64,000 nucleotides of DNA from Chthoniobacteraceae bacterium (GCA_947476255.1 CANJPY010000003.1:37551-101550), one strand, 5' to 3'. Positions 15,589 to 45,672 are shown, counted from the first letter of the stretch. A program made the numbers and translations. Notes: generated by a model not told the origin, from the letters alone.

Positions 15589-18500
15589 ATGAAGTCCTCT
15601 CGCCTGTTTTCCGTGAAAACCTTCGTTTTTTTAGTCCTGGGGCTTTGGTTTGTGCCTCAAGGTTTGGTTTGTGCCGCAGGGGGCGTCTCCCCGGATTTCA
15701 ACCGCGATATCCGCCCGATTCTTTCCGACAAATGCTACTACTGCCATGGTCCAGACGATGCCCATCGCAAAGGGAAGCTTAGGCTAGACACTGCCGAGGG
15801 CGCGGCAAAGGTTCTTGGGAATAAGAATGCCGCCAAAAGCGAACTTCTCCATCGCGTCACCTCCAAGGACCCAGATGAGGTGATGCCGCCGCCGGACGGG
15901 AATATCGGCAAGAGTTTGTCAGCAGCCGAAGTCGAATTGCTTAAGAGATGGGTTGAGAGTGGGGCTGTTTACTCCAAGCACTGGGCGTTCCTTCCGCCAG
16001 AGCGGCCTCGGATTGCGACGCAGCCCACCGAGCGTCTCCACCCCATTGACGCCCTCGCGCGCAGGCGCCTCACTGAAGAAAAGTTCTCATTCAACCCACC
16101 TGCCTCCAAGGAGACTTTGATTCGCAGGATGACCTTGGATCTCACCGGACTGCCTCCAACGGCATCGGAGATCGCTCAGTTCAAAACCGACACTTCCCCG
16201 GATGCCACTCAAAAATTGATCGACCGCGTTTTAGCGTCCCCCCATTACGGCGAACGGATGGCTTTGCTTTGGATGGATCTCGCTCGGTACGGAGATTCCA
16301 GCGTTTATCACGCAGACGGCCCGCGCGAAATGTGGGGTTGGCGGGACTGGGTGATCGGTGCGTTCAACGCGAACATGCCCTTTGACCAGTTTACGATTGA
16401 GCAGCTCGCCGGTGATCTTATTCCCAAGGCGACGCTGGCTCAAAAAGTAGCGTCGGGTTTTAATCGCAATCATGCCACCACAGACGAGGGTGGAGTCATC
16501 GCCGAGGAGTTCCGCGTCGACTACGTTGTGGACCGCGTCAAAACCACCTCCAATGTCTGGCTGGGACTAAGTTTGGAATGCGCTCAATGCCACGATCATA
16601 AATATGATCCGATTTCGCAAACTGAGTACTACCGTTTTTATTCGTTCTTCAACAATACCAAGGACGGCGGTATGCAGACCCGGAACGGGAATGCCGCGCC
16701 GATGGTTGAAATTCCAGATCCTGAGGCCGACGTAAAATTAAAGCTGGCACAAGAGGCTGTAAACAAAGCACTGGCAAACCTGCATGCGGCGGGACAGCCA
16801 AAGCTCAAAGGAAAAGTCTTCTCGGACTGGGCCGCGCCGAAGGACATCGAAAACGCCAAGCCCTTTCCCGTGGAGGGTGTGGTCATGCACATCCCCTGCG
16901 TGGAGTCCGACAAGACGATTCTTGTAAGCAGCTTGGAGGGCCTCAATGCTTCGACGGGAGGGATTGCACTTGCGAAAGCCGAGCGTGCAGGAACATCTGG
17001 ACTGACCCTTGCAGGGAATGTGTCCGCGGTATTTGACGGTGGGCCGCAGCTTGATGGTCACAGTCCGTTCTCGTTTTCAGTCTGGCTTAAAATTCCGGCT
17101 GTTTCCGGCTCGGCATCAATTTTGACCCGAATGAAAACGGATGCAACCTATCGGGGCTTCGATATTGGATTGGAGAATGGCAAGCCCGGGCTGCACCTTG
17201 TGCATCAATGGAACGGGAGTGCGCTTAAGTTGTACGCCAAGGATCCTCTTCAAAAGGATACTTGGCAGCATATCGTCCTCACATACGACGGTTCGGGCAA
17301 GGCGTCTGGGGTTCATCTTTTCGTGAATGGCGACCTCTGGGAAATGAAGGTTCAAGCTGATACACTATCTGCGTCGAGTGAGACAGACGCACCTCTGGTA
17401 TTTGGAGGTCGCCAGGATGGTTCCCGTTTCCGTGGCGATGTGTCAGAAGTAACTCTCTGGAAGCGCGAACTGGCAGTGAACGAAATCAAAGACGCTGCCC
17501 AAAGCTATATTCAAGCCCTGCGGTATTATCCCGTGGACTTGCGCACTGAGACGCAAGCAAAAGCTCTTGCACAGGCATTCCTTCTCGGACAGGACCGCTC
17601 TGATGCGACGCAGCGTACCGCTTATGCCAAGGCTCTTGATGCCGAACTAAAATCTCGAAAAGGACTGAGTAGTGTGATGGTGATGGAGGATCTTCCAGAG
17701 GCCCAACGTCGCGCGACGTTTGTACTTAGTCGCGGGCAGTACGATGCACCGCTCAAAGACCGTGAAGTGAAGCCTGGAGTTCCTGCCATACTTCCTCCCC
17801 TTTCTTCAGAAGGGGAATTCGACCGCTTGTCGCTTGCGCGCTGGTTGGTTCAGCCGGGGCATCCCCTGACGGCGAGGGTGACGGTAAATCGGATTTGGCA
17901 AATGCTTTTTGGCGAGGGCTTGGTAAGAACAAGCGAGGATTTTGGAATGCAGGGCGAAATGCCAAGCCACAGCGATTTATTGGACTGGCTGGCTGTCGAG
18001 TTTGTGGAATCCGGCTGGAATCTCAAGCACCTCATCCGGCAGATCGTTTCGAGCCAAACCTATGGCCAAGATGGGCGTCAGACCCCTCAAACATTGGAAC
18101 TTGACCCGGAAAACAGACTGCTTGCCCGAGGGCCGCGCATTCGTTTGCAGGCTGAGTTTATTAGGGACAATGCACTTGCTGTGAGCCATTTGCTAAACCC
18201 AAAAATCGGAGGCCCAAGTGTTAAACCATATCAGCCTGCGGGTGTCTGGGAAGAGGTGGCTCTCGACACCAACCTTTCGAAGTTTACGCCAGACACAGGA
18301 GAGAAACTTTACCGGCGCTCGATGTACACTTACTGGAAGCGGTCTTCTCCTCATCCCTCCATGGTGACCTTCGACGCTACTACGCGAGAGAAGTGTACCG
18401 GACGGCGCTCGCGCACTAACACTCCGCTGCAGGCTCTTGTGACATTAAACGACCCGCAGTTTGTCGAGGCCGCGCGCGCGTTTGCTCAACGTGTGATTCG

Positions 18501-18765
18501 CGAAAGCGGAACCTCTGCCTCAGATCGTGTCACCTTTGCCATTCGAGAAGCTCTTGGTCGTGAGCCGAGGTCTAGAGAAGTTGAAGCGCTCTCCGAACTG
18601 GCACGTACCGAGTTTGAAAGATTTCAAAACGAACCGGAGAAAGCACGCCGGTTGCTGTCGGTTGGTGAACATTCTCGCGACAAAACCATTCCTGAACAGG
18701 AGCATGCCACTTGGATGGTAATTGCAAATACAGTCCTTAATTTGGATGAATTTTTGGTCAAATAG
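15589..18765 (+). CDS. PSCyt1 / DUF1549 (PSCyt2) / LamG-like / DUF1553 (PSD1) secreted protein
   Basis: The start is at the ATG at 15589 (MKSSRLFSVKTFVFLVLGLWFV). CYYCH is at 15733..15747, followed by KGKLRLD. The DUF1549 block is LIRRMTLDLTGLPPT. A second motif, CAQCHDHKYDP, is at 16579... A laminin-G_3-like insert spans about 16990-17490 (FSFSVWLKIP...LTYDGSGKASGVHLFVNGD). The DUF1553 tail is VNRIWQMLFGEGLV... Confidence 0.93.
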   Translation: MKSSRLFSVKTFVFLVLGLWFVPQGLVCAAGGVSPDFNRDIRPILSDKCYYCHGPDDAHRKGKLRLDTAEGAAKVLGNKNAAKSELLHRVTSKDPDEVMPPPDGNIGKSLSAAEVELLKRWVESGAVYSKHWAFLPPERPRIATQPTERLHPIDALARRRLTEEKFSFNPPASKETLIRRMTLDLTGLPPTASEIAQFKTDTSPDATQKLIDRVLASPHYGERMALLWMDLARYGDSSVYHADGPREMWGWRDWVIGAFNANMPFDQFTIEQLAGDLIPKATLAQKVASGFNRNHATTDEGGVIAEEFRVDYVVDRVKTTSNVWLGLSLECAQCHDHKYDPISQTEYYRFYSFFNNTKDGGMQTRNGNAAPMVEIPDPEADVKLKLAQEAVNKALANLHAAGQPKLKGKVFSDWAAPKDIENAKPFPVEGVVMHIPCVESDKTILVSSLEGLNASTGGIALAKAERAGTSGLTLAGNVSAVFDGGPQLDGHSPFSFSVWLKIPAVSGSASILTRMKTDATYRGFDIGLENGKPGLHLVHQWNGSALKLYAKDPLQKDTWQHIVLTYDGSGKASGVHLFVNGDLWEMKVQADTLSASSETDAPLVFGGRQDGSRFRGDVSEVTLWKRELAVNEIKDAAQSYIQALRYYPVDLRTETQAKALAQAFLLGQDRSDATQRTAYAKALDAELKSRKGLSSVMVMEDLPEAQRRATFVLSRGQYDAPLKDREVKPGVPAILPPLSSEGEFDRLSLARWLVQPGHPLTARVTVNRIWQMLFGEGLVRTSEDFGMQGEMPSHSDLLDWLAVEFVESGWNLKHLIRQIVSSQTYGQDGRQTPQTLELDPENRLLARGPRIRLQAEFIRDNALAVSHLLNPKIGGPSVKPYQPAGVWEEVALDTNLSKFTPDTGEKLYRRSMYTYWKRSSPHPSMVTFDATTREKCTGRRSRTNTPLQALVTLNDPQFVEAARAFAQRVIRESGTSASDRVTFAIREALGREPRSREVEALSELARTEFERFQNEPEKARRLLSVGEHSRDKTIPEQEHATWMVIANTVLNLDEFLVK

Positions 18766-18818
18766 GCCGGTGTCGGAGTTCACATTTTTAATCCTCTAGT
18801 CCTGAAACATTTTTCGAC

Positions 18819-20231
18819 ATGATAAATCGCAGAGCCTTCATTTCACGTTCTGGAACTGCCCTAGGGGCGACCGCGCTCTCGGGCCTTCTGAATCCCAGCC
18901 TTTACGGAACGGCAGCGGCCAGCGCAGGGACCCACTTCGCTCCAAAAGCCAAGCGCTTGATCTACCTGTTCCTCGCCGGGGGCCCGTCGCATATCGATAC
19001 CTTCGACTACAAACCTGCAATGCGAAAGCTCCATGGAATCGAGCTCCCCGAATCCATCCGCAATGGCCAGCGGATCACGGGGATGACGAGTGGGCAAAAA
19101 GCGTTTCCCTGCGTTGCTCCGATGTTTGAGTTCAAGCAGTACGGTCAACGCGGCGCGTGGGTCAACAGCGACATCCTGCCGCACACGGCGTCAATGATCG
19201 ATGAGATGGCCGTGATCAAGTCTCTCCATACGGAGGCGATTAATCATGACCCAGCTATCACGTACATCGCCACGGGTGCCCAGCAGCCAGGACGTCCCAG
19301 CCTCGGTGCCTGGCTCAGTTATGGACTGGGTTCAGAGAATGCCAACATGCCCGCATTTGTCGTGATGATCTCGCAGGGACGCGGTCAAAAACAGGCGCTG
19401 TACTCGCGGCTGTGGGGGAGTGGTTTTTTGCCTTCGCGGCATCAAGGGGTGCAATTCCGCAGCTCTGGTGACCCGGTGTTGTATCTCTCGAATCCCGAGG
19501 GCTTGGATCGCTCGACTCGGCGGGCGCAACTTGATGTGCTAGGAGCGCTTAACGCCGATAGCGCTGAGCTTTCACGCGACCCTGAGACGATTGCGCGCAT
19601 TTCCCAGTATGAGATGGCGTTTCGCATGCAGACAGCGGTCCCGGAGGTGGTCGATATCTCGAAGGAACCCGAATCGGTGCGAAACCTCTACGGGCCTGAT
19701 GTAATGAAGCCTGGCAGTTTCGCTGCAAACTGTCTGCTCGCGCGGAGAATGTCTGAGCAGGGTGTTCGCTTTGTACAGATCTTTCATCAAGGCTGGGACC
19801 AGCATGGCTCGTTGCCCTCAAAACTAAGGCTGCAATGTGAGGACATTGATCAGGCTTGTGCCGGATTGTTGAAGGATCTTAAACAGCGCGGCATGTTGGA
19901 CGATACGCTGGTGGTTTGCGGAGGCGAATTCGGGCGCACCATCTACAGTCAGGGCGCCCTTAGTGCCGACAATCATGGGCGTGACCACCATGGCCGGTGT
20001 TTTTCTACGTGGTTGGCCGGAGGCGGCGTCAAGCCAGGGATGGAATACGGCGTTACCGACGATTTTTCTTATAACATCCTCGAGAACCCAGTTCACATTC
20101 GTGATCTAAACGCCACGATTTTACACTGCATGGGGGTTGATCATCGCCGCCTCACCTTCCGTTATCAGGGGTTGGACCAGCGGTTGACAGGCGTGGAGGA
20201 GGCTCGTGTGGTCAACGCATTGCTGTCTTAA
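18819..20231 (+). CDS. DUF1501 protein (Tat-exported, sulfatase/alkaline-phosphatase-like fold)
   Basis: It has a twin-arginine leader, [20 protein letters not shown]. The conserved DUF1501 blocks are [22 protein letters not shown] and HGRDHHG. The gene lies 53 nt downstream of the DUF1553 gene on the same strand. Confidence 0.93.
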
Positions 20232-20294
20232 AACCCGTGGTTCTCTTTGGGAGGCCAGTTTGCCTGTGGAATTTCTGAGATCGCCTGGCGCTCC

Positions 20295-23200
20295 TTAATC
20301 AAGGTAGATAAGTTCGTTCGTATTCAGCATCGCGCGGCAAAAAGCCCCAAGCCCATGGATGTTGATGAGCGCTGTTGCCGCTTCATGTTCTTTCGCTGTG
20401 GGAGGCCGCTGAAAGGTCAGTCGAAAAATCTGACTCACTGCATTTTCACTCTTTGCAACGCGGCTTCCGAGGGCGTTGGCCATATCGAGCGTGAAACCGT
20501 GATTGAGCAGTGTCAGCGCTTGCAGTGGGGTAGTTGTGTTTGCACGTTTCGGGGCAGCGAAAGCAATGTCCGGCAGGTCGAAGTCGGTGAGGACGTCGAC
20601 AACACTAGCGCGTGCGTTTTGATGATAGACGGCGCGGCGGTAGGTCTCGGGACCGTGCGTCTCTAGCGGGAAATAGGTGCTGACATTGTTTTGCGTGAAT
20701 TTGTAGAGACGGAAACCGGAGCCTCCCATGGGTTCCAGTTGGAGTTTGCCAGCCACGGCTAGCATGGTGTCGCGAATTTCCTCGGCGCTCAGTCGTCTTG
20801 GTGGAAAACGCCAAAGCAGGCGTGCACTTTTGTCCTCCTTAGCCGCTTCATCGCGATAGGATGCGCTTTGTTGGTAGGTCTGAGAAAGGAGGATTTCACG
20901 GTGAAGCGGTTTAAGTTTCCAACCGTGTACAAGGAGCCTGGTGGCGAGGTAGTCGAGCAACTCGGGATGTGTGGGTTTGCTCCCAAGAAATCCAAAGTCG
21001 CTTGGGGTATCAACAATGCCGGTTCCAAAGTGATGCTGCCAAACGCGGTTGGCCAGCACGCGTGGAGGGAGAGGATTGTCATTGCTGGTAATCCATTGAG
21101 CGAGCGCCACACGGCGCTGTCCTTCATCGGCATCGGCTTTTAAAGCGTAAGGCTTGGCCACTTGATCCAGCACGTTAAGGCTGGCGGGCACTACGGCCTC
21201 ACTGGGTTTCATGGGGTCTCCTCCTTTCTGGACAAAGGTAGGCTCCTTGGGTTGTGTGTGCATTCCGACCCACATCTGCGGAAGCGCAGGTACAGCATTG
21301 AGCTTTGTTTGAACCTGCGCGATTTGCTTTTGAAACGCTCCTAGCTTTTGCTGTTCCTCATCCGTTGTGCTATTGCGGCGGAAGCGTTCTATGCCGTGCG
21401 CTTGCGTCCACGGCTCGCGGCCTTCATCGCTGGCGACAGTGCGCCAAGATTGGCCGTCCATAGATACTTGAATCTCGTACTCACATGGCGTTGCGCCCCG
21501 CACTTTGCCTTCTTCGATGGTTCGATCACCGCGGGCATTAATAAATGTGATCCGATTGATCGTCTCTACTTTTGCAAACGAGAGTGTCAGAACGGCTGGG
21601 GTGCCGATAAACCATGCCTCTCCAAGCATGCCGTCGATGCAGTATTGCGGACCGTAAGCATCAGGAAAGTCCTCAGCCTTCGAAGATTTAGCACCCTCTG
21701 CGTTTGTGCCGTTGCTTGCCAGCGCCACATTGCGAGTCGGTTCGCTCGAGCTCCAGACTTGAAATTCCGTGAGTTTTCCTCCCCCCCCTCGCTTCAACTT
21801 GGCGCCTGGTTGATAATCACCCGTAAGACCGTGAATCACAAATCTGAGGTGCTTTGCTTCGGTGGCTGTAAAAGATTCGTCGGTGCCGTTCGGATCAATC
21901 TTAGGGCGCGTAAATTTCGTGGCTTCAAAGGTGTCTTTGGCGCGTTTTTCAATCGTCTGCTCAAGTTTGCTGCGTTGCGCTTCGAGTTCTTTTAATTCGG
22001 TAGTCAGCGGTGTGGTTGTTGTGGAAAAAGCCTGCAATTGCATTGGGTCAGCGACGATCCGCCGCCCGTGCACGGTACCTTCAAATGCAGCACGCAGACG
22101 GTAGTAGTCCTCGGTGGGAATAGGGTCGAATTTGTGGTTGTGGCAGCGGGCGCAGTTGATGGTGAGTCCCAGAAATGCACCGCTTGTGGCAGTGATCATG
22201 TCATCGAGTGTGGCTGCGCGGATGTTCTTCTGTGCCACGATGTCTTGATTTCCGACGTCGTCGTAGGGACCTGCCACGAGAAAGGCGCTGCCTACCTCAA
22301 TCTGAGGATTATCTTTCCCGACGACATCACCCGCCAGATGTTCGGTGATAAACTGGTTGAAGGGCTTGTCCGCGTTGATGGATTTGATGACGTAATCGCG
22401 GAACGGCCAGAGATCATCAATGATGAAGTTGCGCTCAAAGCCGTTACTTTCTCCGAAGCGGACCACGTCGAGCCAGTGCCGCCCCCAACGTTCGCCGTAA
22501 CGAGGCGAAGCAAGCAGGCGATCCACGAGTGTTTCGACGGCAGCGCGCGGATTTGTCTGGTGCGCTATTGAAAACGTTTCCACTTCCTCGGCTGTTGGAG
22601 GTAACCCGGTGAGGTCGTATGTCATTCTCCGAATTAGCGAGCGGGGCTCAGAGGGTTGGTTGAGACGGAGTCCTTTCTCAGTCAGTTTGGCGGTGATAAA
22701 GCCGTCGATAGAATCTTGCGAGAATGTTTTCGGTAATGGTTGCAGCGACCACCAAGACTTGTCGCCGCGTTTTGCCTCGATTTTCGCGCCGTCTCGAGGA
22801 TCTGGCGCTCCCATCCTGACCCATGTGAGGAGATCCGCGAGCTGTGGGTCCGAAAGTTTGGGTTTTTTCGGCGGCATTTTGAGGTCCTCCTCGAGATGCT
22901 GGACTGTACGGATCAGCAGGCTTTCCTCGGGGTTGCCGGGAATGATCGCGGGAGTGCCGCTGTCGCCCCCTTTCTCCCAGCCTGCTTTGGAGTCCAAGTA
23001 GAGGTTACCCTTGAGCTTCTTGGCCTCCGCGCTGTGGCACGAGTAACAATGTTCAACAAGAAGGGGCCGCACCCGCTGTTCAAAGAAGATCATCCCAGCG
23101 GCGTCTGCGGCGTTGGAGCTGGCCGAGAGCAAAGCCAGGACGCCTAAAATTGATGCAAGAAGCTTACAGGTACCATCCTTGGAGGCTGTATTCACAATAC

Positions 23201-23318
23201 TTTCCAGCAGCGGGGAGGCGAACAGAGCGCTCCATTGAATCTGGTTGAAAATCTTTCTCATACGCCGGTTTAACGGAGCCCTATTCACGCGTTTGTCTTT
23301 GGTGGTTGGTGCGTTCAT
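20295..23318 (-). CDS. PSCyt1 / DUF1549 / F5/8 type C (discoidin) / DUF1553 secreted protein
   Basis: The start is an ATG at 23318. Motifs are CYSCH...KGNLYLD, LIRRMTYDLTGLPPT and CARCHNHKFDP. A discoidin-like insert spans about 21430-21860 (YGPQYCIDGMLGEAWF...INRITF...YEIQVSMDGQSWRTV). The DUF1553 tail is ANRVWQHHFGTGIV. Confidence 0.92.
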   Translation of the reverse strand: MNAPTTKDKRVNRAPLNRRMRKIFNQIQWSALFASPLLESIVNTASKDGTCKLLASILGVLALLSASSNAADAAGMIFFEQRVRPLLVEHCYSCHSAEAKKLKGNLYLDSKAGWEKGGDSGTPAIIPGNPEESLLIRTVQHLEEDLKMPPKKPKLSDPQLADLLTWVRMGAPDPRDGAKIEAKRGDKSWWSLQPLPKTFSQDSIDGFITAKLTEKGLRLNQPSEPRSLIRRMTYDLTGLPPTAEEVETFSIAHQTNPRAAVETLVDRLLASPRYGERWGRHWLDVVRFGESNGFERNFIIDDLWPFRDYVIKSINADKPFNQFITEHLAGDVVGKDNPQIEVGSAFLVAGPYDDVGNQDIVAQKNIRAATLDDMITATSGAFLGLTINCARCHNHKFDPIPTEDYYRLRAAFEGTVHGRRIVADPMQLQAFSTTTTPLTTELKELEAQRSKLEQTIEKRAKDTFEATKFTRPKIDPNGTDESFTATEAKHLRFVIHGLTGDYQPGAKLKRGGGGKLTEFQVWSSSEPTRNVALASNGTNAEGAKSSKAEDFPDAYGPQYCIDGMLGEAWFIGTPAVLTLSFAKVETINRITFINARGDRTIEEGKVRGATPCEYEIQVSMDGQSWRTVASDEGREPWTQAHGIERFRRNSTTDEEQQKLGAFQKQIAQVQTKLNAVPALPQMWVGMHTQPKEPTFVQKGGDPMKPSEAVVPASLNVLDQVAKPYALKADADEGQRRVALAQWITSNDNPLPPRVLANRVWQHHFGTGIVDTPSDFGFLGSKPTHPELLDYLATRLLVHGWKLKPLHREILLSQTYQQSASYRDEAAKEDKSARLLWRFPPRRLSAEEIRDTMLAVAGKLQLEPMGGSGFRLYKFTQNNVSTYFPLETHGPETYRRAVYHQNARASVVDVLTDFDLPDIAFAAPKRANTTTPLQALTLLNHGFTLDMANALGSRVAKSENAVSQIFRLTFQRPPTAKEHEAATALINIHGLGAFCRAMLNTNELIYLD

Positions 23319-23333: not shown

Positions 23334-24749
23334 TCAGGCGAGGATGTTTTTGAGAACATGACCGTGAACGTCCGTGAGGCGCCGGTTTGCACCGTTGTGG
23401 TAATGGGTAAGTTTTTCGTGATCGAGCCCTAACAAGTGGAGAACCGTCGCGTAAAAGTCATAGACCGTTGTGACGTCCACGACCGAACGGCGGCCGAACT
23501 CGTCGGTTGCCCCGTGGCTAACCCCTCCCTTGACCCCCGCACCCATCATCCAAGTCGTGAAGGCGTCTGGGTTATGGTCGCGTCCGCTGGTTCCCTCCTG
23601 ATGGGTGGGCATCCGGCCAAATTCGGTGCACCACAGGACAAGCACGTCGTCTAACATGCCGCGTTGCTTCATGTCGGTGAGCAGTGCCGCCGTGGGTTGG
23701 TCAAAAATAGGGCAATGCCGTTCGTAGTCAGCTTTGAGTGTTTTGTGGGCGTCCCAGTTTAGAAGGCCGTCTACGTTGCTCGCGCGTGAGGCGCAATAAA
23801 GGCTTACATAACGCACGCCTTTTTCGAGAAACCGACGTGCGAGCAAACAGTTCTTTGCATAAGCGGCCTTCAGCTTGTTCTCGTCCGTTGTGCCGTAGAG
23901 GCTGTGAATATGAGCAGGTTCGTTTGATAAATTGCTGACCTCTGGAGCGGTGAGTTGCATCTTCGCCGCAAGTTCATACGCGGCCATTCGTGCACGAAGT
24001 TCGTCGTTCCCGGGGTGGATTGCGGCGTGACCCGTATTGAGGACATTGAGAAACTCACGTGTTGCCTGTTCGTCGTCGTCTGTGACGGATATCGGGCGCG
24101 CAAGATTGCGGAGTGGTTGCTGCGCAGCCATTGCTACGGCCTGATGCTGCGCAGGAAGAAATCCATTCCCCCAGTTGGCTTTGCCGTTCGGAGGTTCGCC
24201 GCGGAGATCCTGAATGGAAACATAAGTGGGCATGTTTTCGTTGGCCGTACCCAAGGCATAACTCACCCATGAGCCTGCACTGGGAAAGCCCTCGCGAGTG
24301 AAGCATGAATTCATGTAAATACATCCGGGCCCGTGCGTGTTTGTGCGCGAGGTCATGCTGTGAATGAAGGCCATTTCATCCGCATGCTTGGCAATGTGAG
24401 GGAGCATCGAGGAGATCATCTTTCCGCTTTGTCCGGCGGGCGCAAACGCCCACGGCGATTTCATCAGGTTGCCGTTTTTACCCTGAAACGTGACCTCTTT
24501 TTCTGCCCCTGGCATCGGTGTGCCGTGAAATTTTTCCAACTCCGGTTTGTGGTCCCACAGGTCGATATGCGATGCCGCCCCGGGGCAGAAGATTTGGAGA
24601 ACTTGCTTTGCCCGAGGCGCGAAATGGGGTTGCTGTTGAGTCGCTGCTGCGAGGTCATGAGTACACAGACGCGAGAGTGCAACACCCGTGAGTCCTGTGG
24701 TCATCTGAGCGAGGAGTTGTCGACGGGTAAAATCGAGCGGCGTGGTCAT
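23334..24749 (-). CDS. DUF1501 protein (Tat-exported, sulfatase-like fold)
   Basis: Conserved blocks are CPGAASHIDLWDHKP, TEFGRMP and SGRDHNPD. I place the start at the ATG at 24749, which gives a canonical Tat leader MTTPLDFTRRQLLAQMTTGLTGVALS. The ATG at 24815 and the TTG at 24863 (the track start) are alternatives. The stop is 15 nt upstream of the DUF1553 gene start. Confidence 0.9.
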   Translation of the reverse strand: MTTPLDFTRRQLLAQMTTGLTGVALSRLCTHDLAAATQQQPHFAPRAKQVLQIFCPGAASHIDLWDHKPELEKFHGTPMPGAEKEVTFQGKNGNLMKSPWAFAPAGQSGKMISSMLPHIAKHADEMAFIHSMTSRTNTHGPGCIYMNSCFTREGFPSAGSWVSYALGTANENMPTYVSIQDLRGEPPNGKANWGNGFLPAQHQAVAMAAQQPLRNLARPISVTDDDEQATREFLNVLNTGHAAIHPGNDELRARMAAYELAAKMQLTAPEVSNLSNEPAHIHSLYGTTDENKLKAAYAKNCLLARRFLEKGVRYVSLYCASRASNVDGLLNWDAHKTLKADYERHCPIFDQPTAALLTDMKQRGMLDDVLVLWCTEFGRMPTHQEGTSGRDHNPDAFTTWMMGAGVKGGVSHGATDEFGRRSVVDVTTVYDFYATVLHLLGLDHEKLTHYHNGANRRLTDVHGHVLKNILA

Positions 24750-25214
24750 TGGACAGGTTGGGCGATTAACGGTGGAGGAGATGATTTCGACGGGTAGTGT
24801 GTCGGCGACGTTCATGGGATCGCCTTTGCCTGAGGAAGTACGGTGGCCGTGGATCCTGAACAACAGCCTGATAATATTGGGTTATACCATGGATGCGCGT
24901 GACAGGTCAACGCGGGATTGTATACAATTTCGGGCTTTCCTCGAAATCGTGACCGCAGCGCCACAGCTTTGTTTCACGACGGCGCGGCGATCGACGCGCG
25001 CCCCCATCTCAGGGCGTAGGTTGGTTGAAGTTAGTGCTCAAACCAATCCCAAAAAAATGCAGCAGAGTGCTTTACCAATGGCAGCTGCACGCTGATGATG
25101 AAGTACATTTCGATTTCAAAGAAGTCGGGTGAAGGGGAGCATGGCGCCGCTTTAGGCCGCATTGATCTCGCCAGTTTTTGAAGCCCTGAACCCGGTTGCC
25201 TCGCAAATCCGATG

Positions 25215-35836: not shown

Positions 35837-36077
35837 TGAGCGGGTACGCGGCTGGATCGGGTACTTTGACTACGCGCAAAGGGATGAGGTGTTTGGGAAG
35901 ATGCAGAGGCAGGTGTGTAATCGAGTCCGGAGATGGCTGTGGAAGAAACACGCCAAGAGCCGGGCGCATTACGGGCCGCAGTATCGGAACGAACGCCGCG
36001 CGGCAATGCAAATGAAGCAAACCGGAGAACAGCCTCCGAGAGCCAGATGCGGGAAATCCGCCCGTCCGGTTCGATGA
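35832..36077 (+). mobile_element. Group II intron reverse transcriptase/maturase fragment (C-terminal maturase/X domain only)
   Basis: INERVRGWIGYFDYAQRDEVFGKMQRQVCNRVRRWLWKKH matches the RGWxxYF maturase motif. It abuts the truncated IS4 remnant at about 35835. A 12-bp hairpin follows (GGGAGATGAGGA at 36080..36091 pairing with TCCTCGTCTCCC at 36118..36129, one G-U pair). No RT fingers/palm domain is present. Confidence 0.6.
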
Positions 36078-36351
36078 GGGGGAGATGAGGACAGGGAGTG
36101 GTTGTGGCCGCAAACTATCCTCGTCTCCCTACTCTATTAGGCGGAGTGAAATTGGGGCATGCCGCTCGGAAAACGGTGTTGTCAATCTCGGGAGGTGAGG
36201 TGGAATTGCAAAGCACATCCACCTGCGCGAGAGAATTTTCGTGTGGAAAAGCGATCTCCTGGCGACTCGGTATTCGTAGTTTAACAAGGCGCAGCAGCGG
36301 AAATCGAGAACGCCATATACCTTTACTTTTTTGAGCCTAGCGGTATTGCAC

Positions 36352-37644
36352 CTATCCCGTTACCAGTTCCTTCAAAACGCCGGTACTGTCGCCATGTCTT
36401 ATGGCTGGAGCACCGACGCCTTGAAGCAATGTCAGCCAGACGTTGCAGAGCGGCGTGTCTTTGGCCACTACAAGGTGGTGGCCGAGGTTGATGTTTGCAC
36501 CGCCCCCAGTCAGAAGCATGGGGCAGTTGTCGAGGTAGTGAATCGTGCGGATGTTGCTGCCGTACGCAAGTACGCTGTTATCAAACAAACTTGTGCCATC
36601 AGTTTCCTTGGTGGCCTTCAGTTTGTCTATGAGTCCAGCCAGCAGCTCGCTCTGCGTGGCATCGCGTTTCTGCGAGGCCACCATACGGTCGCCGGGCGAG
36701 TAGTGGCTCATGTCGTGCGGCGCGACCTTGGTGCCCAGACTCTGAAGCAGCGTACCGACGGGCTGACGGTAGGTTAGGACTCGCGCTGTGTCTGTCTGCA
36801 GGGCTGCGACGATCAGGTCGTACATCACTTTGATCTCTTCTTTGCCCGCGAGTCCTTCTTTCGGCTCGGTCATTGGGGCCCTTGACTTCGGTACGCTGAG
36901 CCATTGCTCGTCCTTGCCGAGCCGTACTTCAATGTCACGAATGCTTTGAAAATACTCGTCGAGCTTCTCTGTGTCGGTTTTCGTGAGGCCACGTTGCAGA
37001 TCGCTGGCATCGCTTAGAACGGCATCGAGTATACTGCGTTTTTGCGTGAGCATCGCCTGTCGTTCGCTCAACGGAGTCGTTTCGTTTGAAAACAGCCGGT
37101 GAAACGCCTGCACGGGATTCTCCAGACCGGCCATTGGCTTGCCGCGCATGTCCCACGCGAGCGACAGACCGGGCCCATGGCCCGAATTGGCAACATCCGG
37201 AGAATTGAGCTGGATGGAGGCAAATCGCGTGTCTTTGCCCAGATGCGCCGCTGCAACCTGATCAGCGCTAATGCTGTTGTGAAAGCTCTGTCCGGGTTCG
37301 CCATACCGGTTCGCTCCTGTGAGCCAGAACGTGCTGCCCCAGTGCGCTTCATTGGCAAACTTGTTCGAGCACCCCTGCACCACGGTAATGTCCTTCTGAT
37401 GGCGCGCCAACGGCAGCAACCCATCGGGCATGTCCCACGTCGAGCCCGTTTTCGTCTTGTCAGGAAACCACGTCTCATTTGTCACCCCCCAGCCAAAGTT
37501 CAGGAACACCATGCGCTTTGGGTGAGTGGTGGGTTTTGTGTTGCCGAATACGCGAAATCCCAGAGATTCAAGCGTCGGCAAAGCGACGAGGGCGCTGGCG
37601 CTGCGCAAGAAGTGGCGGCGTGATTGCAGGGGATTCGTGTTCAT
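36352..37644 (-). CDS. DUF1552 protein (Tat-exported)
   Basis: The ATG is at 37644. The leader is MNTNPLQSRRHFLRSASALVALPTL, a twin-arginine type. It has an HDMSHY (HxxSHH) motif and the C-terminus GVLKELVTG. It lies 24 nt downstream of the 1883-aa gene. Confidence 0.92.
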   Translation of the reverse strand: MNTNPLQSRRHFLRSASALVALPTLESLGFRVFGNTKPTTHPKRMVFLNFGWGVTNETWFPDKTKTGSTWDMPDGLLPLARHQKDITVVQGCSNKFANEAHWGSTFWLTGANRYGEPGQSFHNSISADQVAAAHLGKDTRFASIQLNSPDVANSGHGPGLSLAWDMRGKPMAGLENPVQAFHRLFSNETTPLSERQAMLTQKRSILDAVLSDASDLQRGLTKTDTEKLDEYFQSIRDIEVRLGKDEQWLSVPKSRAPMTEPKEGLAGKEEIKVMYDLIVAALQTDTARVLTYRQPVGTLLQSLGTKVAPHDMSHYSPGDRMVASQKRDATQSELLAGLIDKLKATKETDGTSLFDNSVLAYGSNIRTIHYLDNCPMLLTGGGANINLGHHLVVAKDTPLCNVWLTLLQGVGAPAIRHGDSTGVLKELVTG

Positions 37645-37668: not shown

Positions 37669-40600
37669 TTATTTGGTGTGAAATTCCTTGCTGTCGACCA
37701 GCGTGTGCAAGAACTCGCGCATGGCGAAGTCATTCTTCTGCGTCCGCTGCACCATTTTCGCAGCGAGCTCTTCGTCGGTGAAGCCGAAAGGTCTGCCAAG
37801 CGCATACTGGATGAGGGCTTCCGAGAGACTAAGCGCGAATTTTTCGGGCTTTGCAGCGATCAGGTCGCGTAACTCGAAATAATTTTTGAAGGCCGGCCCT
37901 TTGTGTAAGGCGGCAGAGGGGTCGATGGTCCAGGTCTTGAGGCCGTTTTTTGCGGGTCGACCCGTGGAGTCGACGGCTTGAAAACTGTCTTCGGTACGCC
38001 ATTTGCCCACAGCGTTGAAGTTCTCCAAACCAAATCCGATCGGATCAATGGCACGGTGGCAGCTTGCGCATTGTGGCTCCTCTTGATGAGCCAGCAGGCG
38101 TTCCCGCGTGGTCAGTGGCATGCCGTTGAGCCGCGTGATTTGCGGGACATTTGGAGGCGCGGGAGGCGGCGCTTCATGCAAGAGCTTCCGCAGTACCCAC
38201 GCCCCGCGCTCGACGGGGCTTGTGCGCTCTCCGTTGCTACCCATTGCAAGCACGGCGGCCATGCCGAGCAATCCGCCGCGAGGTGACTCTTTTGGCAGTG
38301 ACACTTTCCGGAAATCATCGCCGCTTACTCCTTCAATTCCATAAAAGTTCGCGAGAAGACCGTTAACGATAACGTAGTCGCACTTAAGCAGGTCGCGCGC
38401 GCTCCCGTTTGTGCGCAACAGATGTGCGAAGGTCTCATACACTTCGCGGCGCGTGGCGGCCTTTGTGCTTTCGTCAAAATCGCGAAATTGCTTCGTGTCA
38501 AACTGGAAGAAATCCAGCCGCTCCATACCCAGCCATTGATTCACGAAGCCGCTGACAAACTCGTTCGCCTTCTCGCTGGCGATCATTCGATCCACTTCCC
38601 TTGCGAGTACCTCGTGCTTCAGCAATTCACCGCTGCGAGCGAGTACGAGCAGCGTGTTGTCAGGCGGCGCGCTCCAGAGAAAATACGAAAGGCGCGTGGC
38701 GAGTTCCGCGGCCGTGAGTAGGCGCGGCTTTTTCTCCCCGGCGGGTTCACTGAGATAAAGGAAACGCGGAGAGGCGAGCACAACGCTGAGCGGCGTCTTG
38801 AGAGCGTTCTCGAACGCATCACCGGCCTTGCGCCGTGTTTCGTAAAGCCCCATGAGCTTGCCGAGGTAGGCATCGCTCGGCGGCCTGTCACGAAACGCAA
38901 GCACGGCAAACTTCTCTATGATCGTGCGCGCGTGATCGCTCTCGCTCGCGTTCTTTGTGTTCGTGAAAACCACTGGTGCAGGCACGGACTTCGCGCCGCT
39001 CTTATTCAGGGGGCCTTCGTATTCGATCCAATCCATCCATAGCACCGGATCGCGCTGTTTGGCGTCGGCGATCTGCCGCGTGCGACCGGGTAGACTGATG
39101 CCTTCTTTTTTCAAGGGGCGCTTCTCCATCAGGATAAACTTGCGCGGACCGCCCGGAGTGATTTTGAACGGCATCTCGATGATCTCGGGTTGGTCGAGGG
39201 TCCCGGTGATTTGCTTGTTTGTGAGAAAGGTGCGGTCGTCCTTGTCGATGGGACTGGCTTCAACGAAAGTCAGGAATGCGCGCTCGGTTGGCATGTTCGG
39301 CACGCGGCCTATCTTTACGCGCATCACGTACTCGCCCATCGCGGTGTCGGAGGGCAGGTCGATGGCATACTCGGAGGTTTCCTGGACGGTGTTGTCGAGA
39401 TAGAGGCCGGTCTTTGACAGGGGCCGGTCGAGGTATTGCTGAAACCAGCGGTTGTTACTGTCCCACACCGTCTTGGCAAACTCGGCGTGGGATTTGTCGG
39501 TGAAACCAAAGTCCTTCAGTTTCGTCTCGTCACTTCCTGCATCCTTCCACTTCGCACACTGCTCATTGAGATACTTGTAACGCAAATGCCCGCGTTCCAG
39601 CTCGGCGCGGCGGGTTTCAGGCTCGATGTGCTCCGTCTTTGTGACGGGTACCTGGCTCACCAGTGGCCCTTCCCACTCCACCCAGTCGATCCACAGCGCA
39701 GACACGGCGCCAATTCCGTTCTCCTTCTTCCCTGCTTCTTGCATCTCTCCGTCCAGTTTTACATCACGTTTCTCCCGCAGAACAAAAGTACGCGGGCCGT
39801 TTGCCGTGATGTTTACGGGAGCTTCAATGATCTGCGGCGCATCGGTGGTCGCGCTGATCTGGAAGGTTTGCATCAAGGTGAAGTCCTCCGCTCCTGCCTT
39901 GCGACTCCCGAGAGCGACGAAGTGCCGTTCCCTGGGCGTGCCCTTTACTGCGCCTATCCTAAAACGCAGCACGTAGTCGCCGGGTTCCGCATTCTCTACC
40001 TCATGTTTGGTCTTCATCCAGCCTGAAGGCTGATCCGGAGGCAGCGTGATGACCTCCTCGGTGTGAACGCTTTGAATGGTGAGGTAAGCGCCTGTTTTCG
40101 TCAACGGATCGTTCAGGTAGCGTTCGAAGACCGGGGAAGCTTTTTCAAAGGCGCGCACGCGGAACTTCGCTTCTTGCTCATCGGGAATGCCCTTCTGTGG
40201 TTCGCCAGTTTCCAAAAACTTCTTCGCCGCCTCGTAACCGCCTTTGAAATATCCGTTGTACGTGCCGCCCACCATTGCATTTGCATGTAGCTCAACCTCA
40301 CGGCGTTCTTTCATGGTTTTTGCTCCCGCGAATGTCGGTGCGCTTGAGGTCACGGGGCCCGCCAATTCGATCCAATCCACCCAAACCGCTGGTTTGGGCC
40401 CGGCGCCGTGTTTTTCTTTGTAAGCACGAAACGCACTCATGCCTGCTTCACCGTTGTAGGTTGGTTGCTTTTCCCTCACTGCAAACTCCCGCAGTGAAAG
40501 TGGAGTATCGCTCATGCTGGGGGCATTCAGGGTCACCGGCACCTCGATGATCTGGGGATTGGCAATTGTTCCATGGACTTGATGGGTGCTCAAAAGTTTG

Positions 40601-43320
40601 AAATCACGAGGCAGGTCCTTGCCGGCATTGGGACCGGGGTTGCCAATCTCAATAAAGCAACGGTCCTTGGGCGCACCCTCGAGGGCGGCGACCCTCAGCC
40701 GCAGCGTGTAGTTGCCGGCTGCGGATGTCTCATCGGCTTTGATTTCGACCGTCGATGGCCCCCAGAAGGTTGTGAGGCAAACGCCCGTCTGGTGCTCCGG
40801 GATCTTCAGGTAGTCTACGGTGTACTGATAGGAATCTACGTAACGCTCGGGGTGCATGCGGAAGCGAAGCGGGTAATAGTCTGTATCGCCTTTCTGCGGG
40901 AGCCCTTTGAGCAGATCAAAATTATCTGCCCCTCTGAGTGAACGCACCAGTTCCCCCGCGCTCAAAAGTTCTCCTCCGGCGGAAAAAGCGCGCCGGTTTG
41001 CATAGGTTTTTACGCGAATATCTGCATTCTCGGGCTTCTCCAAAATCTTGAGGATGCTTGTAGCCATTCTCTCGGTGTCGGTGCGCCAATCGTCGAGATA
41101 GGCGATTCTTTTGTGGACGGCCTTGTTTGCATCGATTTCCGGCTCGATGTGGATGGTCTTCGCCAATGCCGTCCCCATCGCAGAAGTAGTCGGCGCCTTA
41201 GCCTCGGCCGGGCCTTCTAACTCTACAAAATCCACCCAGATGCACGGACGCGGCCCGGTCCCCGTTTTATCCCAGGCTTCGCGGAACATCGCATACTCGG
41301 CTCCCCGCGTGTTTGGGCGTTTGTCACGGATGGCGAAGTTGCGGTCACCGCTCGCGTTGATTTCCACAGGGATTTCCATGACCTGGGGGTTTTCGAGTGT
41401 TCCAGTGACCTGATGCGAGCTGAGCACGTTGAAATCCGCCGCGTCCGCCTTGCCCGTGCCGATTTCGATAAAACGCCGGTCCTTCGTTGATTCCTCCGAG
41501 GCCGCAATGCGCACCCGCAGCGTGTAACGCCCCGCAGGCCAGTTCACCGGCGCCGTGATTCCAGTGTAACGGCCAAGGGAGTAAAGCATCAACCAAGCGC
41601 CGGTATCACGCGCCGGCAGCTTCATGTAGTCGGCATAGTATTGATGATGGTAGTTGTACTCGCTGCGAGCAAACTGAGCATCGTCCGAATCTTTGAACCC
41701 AAACATTGTCGGGGCAGGCGCATCTGGAATCCTGGCGAAGTGATTGTAAAATAAATGAGGCGACTGCTTCACCTTAGGGTCTTCATGGAGTTGCCTTGCG
41801 ATCTCTGTGTTCCCGTCTTTTTTCGCCGCTTCATCGATCGCAGAACACCATTTCTGAAAGCGCGAATACTTTTCCTCATAACCCTCAGCATAGATGGGCA
41901 TGTATTTGTTCGCCCACTGCTCGGGGTCTTTGCGGAGCTTCTGAGACTTCGTATTGCCTGCTGTGATTGACTCTGGCTGCGTATTCACAGGCCCTTCGAC
42001 CTCAATCCAATCAATCCACAGCGCAAACTCGGGGCCGGTGCCGTTGCGCTGCTTGCCCTCGGCGAACAAGCGGTGAGATGCCTCCTCCGACTCATAAGTG
42101 CCCTTTTCCTGAAAGAAAAAACCGTGGCCTTTCGCCGGCGAAAACTTCAGTGGAATCTCCAGCACCTGTGGATTCTCGAGTGTGCCTGTGACTTGATAAC
42201 TGCTCGCTACGGCACGCACGCCGCTGTCGTGCTGCGAGCCAAACTCGACAAAGTGCCGCGTGGCTGGCGTGTTCGACGTCGCCGCGATGCGCACGCGCAC
42301 GACGTAATCGCCCGCAGGCCAGTCGCCAGGGATGCGGAAGGGCTGATACGGATTCAGAAACGCGTCCTCGATGGTGAGGAAGGTGCCCGTCTTCGTCGCC
42401 GGATGTTCAACATAGACGCGCTGATACGGCACGTAGTGCATCCAGTTCCGGCGGCCGTCTTCATCGGCATTCACCGCATCCACAAAGCCAAAGTCCTTCG
42501 GCGAAGGCGCATCCTTGATGCGCTGCCATTGCGAGTAGAGATGCGTGGCGGCGTCCTTTTGCTCCACTCGAATCTGCAAGGCGATGGCCGTATTCTCCGG
42601 CTTCAGCGCCGCCGCATCCACCGCTGCGGTCCATTTCACATAGCGCTCATGCGCGTCCGTGCGTTCGGCAAGCGACTTCACGATGCGGGCATTCCTTTCC
42701 TCCGCCTCCACATGCATTCGCCGCGGCTGCGTACCCGACGGCGAGACGAAGCGCGCGAAGTGCTCATCCAGCGCCTGCCGCCCGAGCGTTAAATATTGCT
42801 CGAACTGGTCTGAAGACATGAAAAGCGAAGAACCCACTGTATCAAACGTGCCGGAGCCACCATCCGCGGGTAGTTCGCGCACGTTGATGTCCACGCCGAG
42901 CAAATCACGGATGGTGTTTTTGTATTCGCGCCGGTTTAGCCGCCGCATGGTGATCTTGCCGCCCGAATCGCCCAGCGCGCGTCGCGCTGCCATGAGCGTG
43001 TGCGAGAGTGAATCGAGAAATTCCGTTTTCGCCATGCGTTCCGGTTGTTTCGCATCTTCAGGCGGCATCTCGCCCGAATTGAGCTGGTTGAGGATTTTCT
43101 GCCAGCGATCCGCATTCTCCACGGAGTCGAGCACGAAGGAAATGTCGTCGAGCCGCAGTTTGCCCTTTTGCTTCTCCTCGTTGTGGCACTCTACGCAGTA
43201 ATCCTTGAAAAACGCGCGGTGCTTTTGATCCAGCAGCGCGTGCGGGGCCTCGGCGGCAGGTGCTGATAGACAAGCAAAAATCGGCAGGGAAAGGATTGGA
43301 AAGAGCCAACGAGTTTGCAT
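37669..43320 (-). CDS. Giant (1883 aa) DUF1587/1595/1592/1588/1585-type secreted CxxCH protein with a 5-fold internal module expansion
   Basis: It has a signal peptide. The N-terminus is [18 protein letters not shown]...LNSGEMPP. Five modules end in [48 protein letters not shown] and [12 protein letters not shown]. The C-terminus has [32 protein letters not shown] and [18 protein letters not shown]. Confidence 0.93.
39010..42723 (-). repeat. Five tandem protein-level modules (218-285 aa each) inside the 1883-aa gene
   Basis: Approximate module boundaries in nt are 41989..42723, 41209..41988, 40354..41208, 39664..40353 and 39010..39663. Four motifs recur in each module: KTG.(Y/F/W)L; WPAG.Y.(V/L)R(V/L)RIAA (with variants); [15 protein letters not shown] (with variants); and W(I/V/M)D(W/F)(I/V)E.EGP. 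I saw no obvious nucleotide-level identity, so the duplication is old. Confidence 0.8.
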
Positions 43321-43361
43321 AGCTTAGTGACAGGTTTTTGTGAGTCCTTGGATGGGCGCCC

Positions 43362-44274: not shown

Positions 44275-45672
44275 ATGGCTGAAGCTTCTTCAACTGCTGC
44301 GAACCTGTCGGGCAATTCTTCTTCGGGATCTCTTCTTCATCTCCCCCGGCGTGGCTTTCTAAAGGCGGGCCTTCTAAACATGGCGGGTCTGACGCTGGCG
44401 GATGTCCTCCGGAGCGACGCACGTGCTGCGGCGGCCGGCAAGTCGGCGTCGAAGGAAAAATCAGTCATTATACTGTGGATGAGGGGCGGCCCAAGCCAGC
44501 ATGAAACTTGGGATCCCAAGCCTGACGCTGCCGCAGAGTATCGCGGCGCCTTTGGAGCCATGAAGACCAAAGTGCCGGGCATTCGAATTTGTGACCTCCT
44601 GCCGCATAGTGCTCGAATCATGGACAAGTGGTCCATCATACGGAGCCTCTACCACAACAATGCCGGGCATTCTGCTGGAGACCAAATCTGTTTCACCGGA
44701 TATCCCCCCGGCCAGATGGCGGATCAGAATTACTATCCGAGCTGCGGTGCGATTGTCACAAAACAGTTGCAGCAGGCAAATCCGCGCATGCCTGCGTACG
44801 TAGTCATTCCAAAGATGATGCCTGGGACAGGTGCGGCATACCTTGGGACCACTTGCAGTCCCTTTGAAACCGGAGCCGATCCTGCGAATGAAGGTCCCTT
44901 CAGTGTCCCGGATTTCACTCTGCCGGAGTGTCTCTCCCTGAACAGATTGCAAGAAAGGCATTCTCTTCTCCAGAGCTTTGACAATCTGAGGCGGGACATG
45001 GACGTCTCAGGCCAGATAGCATCTCTCGACCGGTTCCAGCAACAGGCTTGGGAAATGATTTCGGGACCGGAGGCCCGCCGTGCCTTTGATCTTGATTCCG
45101 AACCACGGTCCGTGCGGGAACGTTACGGCTTCTTCCCGAAATACGATGCGCCCACTCCTGATCGCTGTGGAGTTCCTGCGTGGAGTCAGCGTGTTTTGCT
45201 CGCTCGGCGGTTGGTCGAAGCCGGGGTACGCTTAGTCACCGTAGACCTGCGCTGGTGGGATACCCATGTGAAAGGCTACGAGACAATGAAAGACGGTTTT
45301 CTGCCTCGATGGGACCTTGCCTACAGTGCTCTCATTGAGGATCTCGAACAGCGCGGCCTGCTCTCCTCCACCCTTGTTGTGGCTTGGGGTGAATTCGGCC
45401 GCACTCCAAAGGTCAACGCAACGGGCGGGCGCGATCATTGGCCCAACGTTTTCAGCGCCGCGCTCGCAGGTGGGGGCGTCCAAGGGGGGCGAGTCGTAGG
45501 GGAATCCGACGCGCGCGGCGGCGAACCTGCAGACAATCCCAAACAGCCTCAGGACGTTCTCGCCACAATCTACAGGCATCTGGGAATCGACACCAACGCT
45601 CAATACGAAGACCGCGTTGGACGCCCCATTTCAGTGCTGCCCTTTGGTACCCCAGTCGACGAACTATTCTAG
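44275..45672 (+). CDS. DUF1501 protein (Tat-exported), with no adjacent DUF1553 partner
   Basis: The Tat leader is LPRRGFLKAGLLNMAGLTLA. Conserved blocks are MRGGPSQHETWDPKP, WGEFGRTPK and GGRDHWPN. Confidence 0.92.
   Translation: MAEASSTAANLSGNSSSGSLLHLPRRGFLKAGLLNMAGLTLADVLRSDARAAAAGKSASKEKSVIILWMRGGPSQHETWDPKPDAAAEYRGAFGAMKTKVPGIRICDLLPHSARIMDKWSIIRSLYHNNAGHSAGDQICFTGYPPGQMADQNYYPSCGAIVTKQLQQANPRMPAYVVIPKMMPGTGAAYLGTTCSPFETGADPANEGPFSVPDFTLPECLSLNRLQERHSLLQSFDNLRRDMDVSGQIASLDRFQQQAWEMISGPEARRAFDLDSEPRSVRERYGFFPKYDAPTPDRCGVPAWSQRVLLARRLVEAGVRLVTVDLRWWDTHVKGYETMKDGFLPRWDLAYSALIEDLEQRGLLSSTLVVAWGEFGRTPKVNATGGRDHWPNVFSAALAGGGVQGGRVVGESDARGGEPADNPKQPQDVLATIYRHLGIDTNAQYEDRVGRPISVLPFGTPVDELF

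Follow-up and report, generated by a model that had tools for sequence, protein, structure and literature searches.

A Chthoniobacteraceae locus with two published, uncharacterised families of gene pairs, each joining a heme-motif protein to a predicted sulfatase-fold relative

We analysed a 64,000-nucleotide stretch of DNA from a Chthoniobacteraceae bacterium (GCA_947476255.1 CANJPY010000003.1:37551-101550; hereafter, the window), in which positions 15,589 to 45,672 hold four two-gene cassettes and one single gene within 30 kb, as established by a Pfam scan of the nine module proteins. Each cassette (A to D) combines a large partner (A1 to D1) that carries two CxxCH motifs, eight in all, with a small partner (A2 to D2) that begins with a twin-arginine leader and belongs to DUF1501 in cassettes A and B and to DUF1552 in cassettes C and D, while the single gene, E, encodes an unpaired DUF1501 protein. 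The locus is a further instance of two uncharacterised gene-pair families, which entered the literature in 2012 and 2017. Beyond the published descriptions, profile comparisons indicate that DUF1501 and DUF1552 are homologous, that DUF1501 aligns with S1 sulfatases in a register that would bring an invariant histidine into the active site motif, and that the two types of large partner share both a PSCyt1 domain and a CxxCHxxxDP site, and structure prediction gives the insert of A1 a lectin-like fold. The profile comparisons suggest that the two families are divergent versions of one ancestral pair. We put at about even the chance that each cassette encodes a periplasmic two-subunit enzyme, composed of a heme-bearing large subunit and a metal-bearing, sulfatase-fold small subunit, and we hold redox chemistry for such an enzyme to be much less probable than this general architecture.

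The first definition of the domains concerned dates from 2004 (Studholme et al., cited by PMC5615132). Kamneva et al. described the module of DUF1501 with a PSCyt1/PSCyt2/PSD1 protein in 2012 (Genome Biol Evol, PMC3542564), noting twin-arginine translocation (Tat) motifs, signal peptides, and inserts of the Laminin_G_3 and F5/8C kinds, and termed it a novel molecular system whose function was left open. He et al. reported in 2017 (PMC5615132, Text S1) that PSCyt2 genes adjoin DUF1501 genes and PSCyt3 genes adjoin DUF1552 genes, with up to 71 DUF1501, 50 PSCyt2, and 17 DUF1552 genes per genome, and predicted a periplasmic or cytoplasmic location for the products; carbohydrate-binding inserts, neighbouring sulfatases, and an analogy to cellobiose dehydrogenase were also discussed. 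Carbohydrate-linked redox roles have been proposed and enrichment in oxic lake layers has been reported (PMC5615132, PMC3542564). An initial annotation of the window, made from its sequence, had presented the cassettes as a candidate undescribed system, a claim that these two publications of both pairings overturn.

The relationship between the two small-partner families emerged from hhalign comparisons with diverse profiles, in which DUF1501 matched DUF1552 at 98.2% (E 3e-14, 355 columns) and, in a second comparison, at 97.7% (E 1.8e-12), indicating homology over their whole length; an earlier comparison with shallow profiles had reached 26%, and the match is significant only with diverse profiles. 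DUF1501 was also aligned with an S1 sulfatase profile built from the sulfatases in the loci that we fetched (numbered here with the prefix L). The local match (95.3%, E 2.4e-8) fell in the C-terminal core and placed the GEFGRT block on the sulfatase SDHG, while the global alignment (94.4%) was collinear over 350 columns, in a register that sets the invariant NH143-D-P-A...T-G of DUF1501 (H143-x-P145 and T152-G153 in A2) on the sulfatase C-x-P-x-R...TG. DUF1552 scored 57% against the same sulfatase profile, and at the place corresponding to His143 of A2 the DUF1552 protein D2 has an invariant His100; the family further conserves a histidine cluster (H309, H313, H368). A motif scan found the formylglycine motif C/S-x-P-x-R absent from all five small partners. 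We thus predict from these profiles that the small partners are sulfatase-fold relatives and not formylglycine sulfatases, with an invariant histidine that would stand, at low local alignment confidence, at the position of the formylglycine cysteine. Searched by sequence against the PDB, DUF1501 gave only weak matches to sulfatase, LtaS, and ENPP4 (E 0.03-1), and DUF1552 gave no relevant match.

The leaders of the two kinds of partner differ. In the small partners the RR pair hardly varies, if at all (it is invariant in 15 DUF1501 sequences), and is followed by a weakly hydrophobic h-region (12-residue Kyte-Doolittle mean 1.1-1.5), and with motifs that fit the S/T-R-R-x-F-L-K consensus these proteins are predicted to be exported by Tat; the Pfam TAT_signal match was weak for C2 and D2 (E 0.02-0.03). 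The N-terminal hydrophobic segment of the large partners has a mean of 2.2-2.8, and in B1 and C1 it lies 35-53 residues past the first possible start, the true starts of these two proteins being uncertain. With that proviso, the segments fit the division into Sec-type large and Tat-type small proteins that the initial annotation had drawn, and all of the eight CxxCH motifs and five twin-arginine leaders that it listed were found at their genes. Its conserved blocks fared less evenly: GEFGRT and GRDHH/GRDHW occur in A2 and E as described, but B2 reads TEFGRM and GRDHN, and the DUF1552 proteins do belong to the HXXSHH family, but the motif itself reads HDMSHY in D2 and HTLTHN in C2.

In the large partners, conservation centres on the heme motifs. 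Residues C49, C52, H53, M99, P100, P101, C331, C334, H335, H337, K338, D340, and P341 are invariant in 116 homologous large partners, and the first and second CxxCH are kept, respectively, in 66/73 and 71/73 PSCyt2-type proteins and in 20/20 and 19/20 PSCyt3-type proteins. Positions 19-120 of the PSCyt1 profile match solved heme c domains (hydrazine synthase alpha, E 1.3e-4; FoxE, E 1e-3), and with its CxxCH and the invariant methionine of MPP we identify PSCyt1 as a class-I cytochrome c domain, which would carry heme. Both types of large partner share PSCyt1 (95% in profile comparison) and, at the second CxxCH, the tail CxxCHxxxDP[IF]; no solved relative of this second site was found by profile search or among the Foldseek matches listed. 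An informative NCBIfam model was found for none of the nine module proteins.

Between these conserved parts the large partners carry inserts that differ by cassette, namely LamG in A1, an F5/8C-like domain in B1, and stretches of ~300 residues in C1 and ~1270 residues in D1 to which no family is assigned (no Pfam match for the C1 insert, and no significant Pfam family for fragments of the D1 insert). A1, which is 100% identical to a protein of 1058 residues (P0241), gave an AlphaFold2 model with a predicted local distance difference test score (pLDDT) of 85.9 and a predicted template modelling score of 0.83. The 50 Foldseek matches listed for this model fell on the insert only, which is modelled as a lectin-like jelly roll similar to those of trans-sialidases, the binding domains of clostridial neurotoxins, and an arabinanase; the helical PSCyt2/PSD1 core had no solved relative among them. 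For D1, no PDB relative was found by sequence. Two candidate domains in D1 were rejected: AA9, a lytic polysaccharide monooxygenase (LPMO) family of interest through its link to Cbp2D, for which a fragment scored E 0.019, below the cut-off, and GEVED, which matched weakly.

Partner genes in the window are separated by 53 nt (A1-A2), 15 nt (B2-B1), 16 nt (C1-C2), and 24 nt (D1-D2), the large gene coming first in A, C, and D and the small gene lying upstream in B. Such proximity is general. Among the 71 A2-type loci with enough upstream DNA, 63 have a PSCyt2/PSD1 gene directly upstream on the same strand (estimated median gap <=43 nt), and a DUF1592-type gene adjoins on the same strand, in either order, in 62 of the 71 informative D2-type loci (gaps mostly 0-24 nt); in Stieleria neptunia the gap of the A-type pair is 2 nt. 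The divergences of the two partners from the window pair also correlate (Spearman 0.60, p = 2e-4, n = 33), the small partner evolving more slowly (57-70% identity vs 38-50% for the large partner). Given this conserved same-strand adjacency, the tiny gaps, and the correlated divergence, co-transcription and co-inheritance of the pairs as putative operons are well supported, and the two proteins may also associate physically. Scans with promoter and terminator consensus sequences gave counts at shuffle level and placed no terminator-like site in any partner junction, the scans being at chance overall. A possible three-gene variant was observed in Cytophagia-type genomes of Bacteroidota, both isolates and metagenome-assembled genomes (MAGs), where the A-type large partner is shorter (~770-790 residues) and a gene for ~712 residues, weakly similar to part of B1, directly follows the pair (L059, L061, L077, L080, L057).

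Table 1. Module genes and associated features of the region, with positions counted from the first letter of the window.
Feature	Position	Strand	Description
A1, large partner of cassette A	15589..18765	+	Signal peptide; PSCyt1 2e-14, PSCyt2/DUF1549 1e-83, Laminin_G_3 1e-19, PSD1/DUF1553 6e-103 (Pfam); CYYCH, CAQCHDHKYDP
A2, DUF1501 small partner of cassette A	18819..20231	+	Pfam 1e-155; leader NRRAFI; blocks NHDP, WDQH, GEFGRT, GRDHH
B1, large partner of cassette B	20295..23318	-	PSCyt1 (CYSCH), PSCyt2 (CARCH), weak F5/8-type-C-like insert, PSD1 (Pfam)
B2, DUF1501 small partner of cassette B	23334..24815	-	Pfam 1e-135; leader TRRQLL; upstream of B1
Leucine-rich repeat (LRR) protein gene	25382..26344	-	Sec signal peptide; weak Pfam LRR_4/LRR_14 matches; gene call in L165
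C2, DUF1552 (HXXSHH) small partner of cassette C	26341..27690	-	Pfam 1.6e-74; leader ARRTFLK; HTLTHN
C1, large partner of cassette C	27707..30559	-	PSCyt1 (CMDCH), PSD3, ~300-aa insert, PSD5, PSD4/DUF1592, PSCyt3/DUF1588 (CASCHTRVDP), PSD2 (Pfam)
Mobile-element debris between cassettes C and D	35244..36137	.	Transposase-like and maturase-like open reading frame (ORF) fragments; group II intron domain V/VI fragment
D2, DUF1552 small partner of cassette D	36352..37644	-	Pfam 8e-73; leader SRRHFLR; HDMSHY
D1, 1883-aa large partner of cassette D	37669..43320	-	PSCyt1 (CVECH), PSD3, ~1270-aa insert, PSD5, PSD4/DUF1592, PSCyt3/DUF1588 (CASCH), PSD2 (Pfam)
E, unpaired DUF1501	44275..45672	+	Pfam 5e-97; leader PRRGFLK; GEFGRT, GRDHW; divergent from D1

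Where the initial annotation had counted five paralogous cassettes, the Pfam scan recovered every family that it named (two PSCyt1/DUF1549/DUF1553 proteins paired with DUF1501, two DUF1592-type proteins paired with DUF1552, and one lone DUF1501), but the arrangement is one of four cassettes plus an orphan, and the paralogy is ancient. A1 and B1 scored far above the gathering thresholds of PSCyt1, PSCyt2 (PF07583), and PSD1 (PF07587), and the small-partner families correspond to PF07394 (DUF1501) and PF07586 (DUF1552). Identities are 38% for A2/B2, 33% for A2/E, 30% for C2/D2, and 31% for A1/B1, so the array was assembled from anciently diverged subfamilies and not by recent duplication. Module genes make up 72% of the 30-kb region; around D2 relatives their share of the DNA has a median of 40% and a maximum of 88%, a further small-partner gene lies within 10 kb in 9/35 long A2-type loci, and mixed arrays of both cassette types occur elsewhere (e.g., L093, L118, and L120). 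The clustering is real but typical of these families.

The divergent arrangement of gene E recurs in three loci (L002, L162, and L163), while E-like genes in L118 and L120 do have a PSCyt2-type partner. The D1-E intergenic gap (43321-44274, ~950 nt) is non-coding, and a related contig has a 69-residue ORF call there. The window organism, a freshwater bacterium whose best matches place it in an uncultured lineage of Verrucomicrobiota, was seen again in several metagenome assemblies, and in one locus from the same organism (L165) the gene call for B2 is 493 residues long. Beside cassette C, the start of the LRR gene overlaps the stop codon of C2 by 4 nt (ATGA), and LRR genes adjoin DUF1501 in two loci without a PSCyt2-type large partner (L027 and L036); the LRR protein may be an alternative or third partner, and is a candidate third component of cassette C. 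The mobile-element debris sits between a DUF4126 gene and D2, with a maturase-like fragment at 35682-36077 (+) and transposase-like fragments at 35288-35836 (-), both judged by eye from translations, and its group II intron fragment corresponds to Rfam RF00029 (36038-36137; 45.7 bits vs a gathering score of 40).

Under the reading we favour, the large protein would be exported unfolded via Sec and would receive covalent heme in the periplasm at its class-I cytochrome c domain, possibly also at the second, CxxCHxxxDP site, while its variable insert, lectin-like or otherwise subfamily-specific, would select the substrate. The small protein, with a sulfatase/alkaline-phosphatase-type fold and a histidine for the formylglycine cysteine, would fold in the cytoplasm, probably with a metal, and leave via Tat. 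In the periplasm the two would assemble into a substrate-specific enzyme in which the heme links a histidine-rich metal site to the respiratory electron pool, and each paralogous cassette would serve a different substrate, most plausibly a substituted sugar or oligosaccharide. In its boldest form, to which we give little credence, the proposal would make both cassette types descendants of a single ancient two-subunit periplasmic enzyme, with a histidine-ligated redox metal in place of formylglycine, wired via c-type heme to the respiratory chain; as an oxidative, non-hydrolytic class, such enzymes would remove or cut substituents of sugars or of dissolved organic matter, working alongside glycoside hydrolases and sulfatases, and would have diversified into tens of substrate-specific paralogues per genome.

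Several points weigh against the two-subunit heme enzyme. To our knowledge, characterised enzymes of the alkaline-phosphatase superfamily are all hydrolases, transferases, or mutases and never redox enzymes, so there would be no precedent for a metal site wired to heme. Local confidence is low in the N-terminal part of the sulfatase alignment, His-for-Cys register included (0.3% when scored as a local match of its own). The AlphaFold2 model of D2 was poor (pLDDT 50, from 122 sequences that were mostly >80% identical), which leaves profile comparison as the source of the DUF1552 fold; a Foldseek search with this model gave no match at E <= 0.001, and the sulfatase and phosphonate-monoester-hydrolase chains that it returned, at E > 1 only, were not used. 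Between the large partners, resemblance beyond PSCyt1 is weak (31% for PSCyt2 vs PSD4 and <1% for PSD1 vs PSD2), and homology there is not claimed. A large partner is absent for gene E and for 8-9 loci per set, and orphans of this kind indicate that the small protein can occur by itself or alongside different partners, LRR proteins for instance. Finally, no functional study or experiment on any member was found in full-text searches of the literature to 2026, in line with the statement in the initial annotation that none of these families is known to have a demonstrated function.

The homology of DUF1501 to the sulfatase profile would also suit a hydrolytic enzyme: the small subunit would be an esterase of sulfatase- or phosphatase-like type, taking ester groups off substrates that the large subunit holds, and the heme would be non-catalytic (structural, regulatory, or other). 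Other Tat-exported metallophosphatases exist, e.g., PhoD and PhoX, and this counts in its favour, as may a raw count that finds S1 sulfatases within 10 kb in 10/30 long D2-type (DUF1552) loci and also in several DUF1501 loci, in agreement with He et al. (PMC5615132). Yet the canonical nucleophile motif is absent, with a histidine in its place, and the two heme motifs and the methionine ligand are invariant across hundreds of large partners, which makes a dispensable heme hard to explain; we regard a hydrolytic role as unlikely, though by no means far-fetched.

The genes around the cassettes bear on a further reading. As the initial annotation had noted, the cassettes sit among esterases, DUF4838 proteins, and beta-helix proteins, and the neighbours in the window are glycan-themed (SASA esterases, DUF4838 proteins, a beta-helix protein, an AXE1-like esterase, and a 3-keto-disaccharide-hydrolase domain). 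The window is also rich in exported proteins, including a heme-motif protein outside the cassettes, and this may point to a common theme of sugar oxidation in the periplasm. Three of these proteins are very large (2407-5019, 9099-13493, and 52880-57193, all on the minus strand): two combine DUF7133 with weak HEAT matches, one of them with a cytochrome c domain and the other with an N-terminal 3-keto-disaccharide-hydrolase domain, and the third has HEAT repeats only. Between E and a gene for 1437 residues, a strain-level indel (46000-52806) carries beta-helix, tetratricopeptide repeat (TPR), and DUF4838 genes, present in the window and in L162, that are replaced by a 209-residue ORF in L002 and L163, whose flanking proteins are identical or 99% identical.

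For a wider view of context, the 114 ORFs lying <=454 nt from a module gene in 68 A2-type loci were scanned against Pfam, yielding 160 families of which none was dominant; the most frequent were PSCyt1 (7), TPR (5), LRR (4, LRR_8), CHB_HEX_C_1 (4), DUF2231 (4), and MR_MLE (3). No glycoside-hydrolase family was among the top 25 families of these neighbours. In the window, none of the large ORFs scanned matched a transporter family, including TonB-dependent transporter and SusD-like families. The Stieleria neptunia orthologue of the A pair (L001, 1-4005) was observed near a sulfatase, a DHDPS/NanA-like lyase, a GntR regulator, and an SSF transporter. A sialic-acid (nonulosonic-acid) theme for cassette A, considered from these neighbours and the adjoining SASA gene, was not borne out by the 68-locus census.

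The initial annotation had read the cassettes as capture-plus-processing units of a polysaccharide-utilisation island of the Planctomycetes-Verrucomicrobia-Chlamydiae (PVC) bacteria, playing the role that SusC/D pairs play in the polysaccharide-utilisation loci (PULs) of Bacteroidota. The glycan theme of the window agrees with that analogy, as do the lectin-like inserts of the large partners and the published ties of PSCyt genes to sulfatases and carbohydrate-binding modules (PMC5615132). Beyond the window it weakens: the census brought out no dominant carbohydrate-active enzyme family, the density of PSCyt genes is inversely correlated with that of glycoside hydrolases (r = -0.62; He et al. 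2017, PMC5615132), the pair comes without a transporter or outer-membrane component, Bacteroidota, with genuine SusC/D PULs of their own, also carry these pairs, and part of the glycan-themed flank (the indel above) is missing in a close strain. We consider such an island improbable. From the variable contexts and the lack of a dominant carbohydrate-active neighbour we conclude that the cassettes are self-contained pairs and not parts of a conserved PUL-like locus, while a link to sugars is still plausible because of the inserts.

The families range widely. Orthologues of A2 that are 68-87% identical occur in Verrucomicrobiota and Planctomycetota, and D2 is >80% identical to many Verrucomicrobiota proteins. 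Outside those lineages, a scan of one genome per species found relatives at 56-73% identity, among them relatives at 56-59% in cultured Bacteroidota (Algoriphagus, Aquiflexum, and Dyadobacter isolates) and in MAGs of Bryobacterales (Acidobacteriota), Saprospiraceae, and Poribacteria, so the description of the cassettes as PVC-specific does not hold. DUF1552 comprises 15,677 clusters at 50% identity (E <= 0.001), and PSD1 and PSCyt2 each occur 41 times in Rhodopirellula baltica. This distribution tells against the suggestion of Kamneva et al. that the module is membrane-targeted electron-transport machinery of the intracytoplasmic membranes in compartmentalised PVC bacteria. That suggestion draws on one type of four-gene DUF1501 cluster, whose reported correlation with intracellular membranes is 0.85 (PMC3542564), but close relatives occur in Bacteroidota and Acidobacteriota, phyla without such membranes, and dozens of paralogues per genome with differing binding inserts fit substrate diversity better than a structural role, leaving it with a very slight chance. 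A MauG-like scheme, in which the diheme-motif large protein would oxidatively mature a cofactor in the small protein, is by analogy compatible with two conserved heme motifs beside a Tat-exported partner but hardly credible, as large, variable, lectin-like inserts are unexpected in a dedicated maturase and orphan small genes exist.

Few uncharacterised gene families are as strongly expanded in Planctomycetota and Verrucomicrobiota as these pairs, whose function has been a question since 2004. Should they prove to be substrate-specific periplasmic enzymes, they would account for a large and so far overlooked share of the carbon that abundant heterotrophs of fresh and marine waters turn over. 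The locus does not itself open this question, nor does it make it more testable than the published descriptions do; what it offers is both cassette types in a small space, with a very conserved A1/A2 orthologue pair suited to biochemistry. Hypotheses are narrowed by the DUF1501-DUF1552 homology, the putative His-for-formylglycine substitution, and the shared CxxCHxxxDP.

Set against known systems, cassettes A and B share with the module of Kamneva et al. (PMC3542564; Group II of He et al. 2017) the domain string, the DUF1501 Tat motif, the signal peptide of the large protein, the LamG/F5/8C inserts, and the same-strand adjacency; nothing essential differs, apart from the reversed gene order of cassette B and the unpaired gene E. 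Cassettes C and D share domain string and adjacency with Group III of He et al. (PSCyt3/PSD2-5 with DUF1552; PMC5615132), from which they depart in the unusually long insert of D1 (~1270 residues) and the overlapping LRR gene of cassette C. SusC/SusD PULs have no homology to the cassettes, which come without their TonB-dependent transporter, lipoprotein binder, and conserved carbohydrate-active neighbourhood, and only the proposed role, as modular, paralogous, substrate-specific units, is alike. To S1 formylglycine sulfatases the DUF1501 profile is putatively homologous, collinear over ~350 columns with GEFGRT on SDHG, but the small partners are without C/S-x-P-x-R, would place an invariant histidine there, are predicted Tat substrates, and have a partner that bears heme motifs. 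Cellobiose dehydrogenase and Cbp2D of Cellvibrio (c-type cytochrome X183 with DUF1587/PSD3; Branch et al. 2021, PMC8981238) resemble the large partners in combining a heme domain with carbohydrate-binding modules in an exported protein; in place of a flavin, PQQ (pyrroloquinoline quinone), or LPMO partner the cassettes have a predicted alkaline-phosphatase-fold protein, and the PSD3 domain is common to Cbp2D, C1, and D1.

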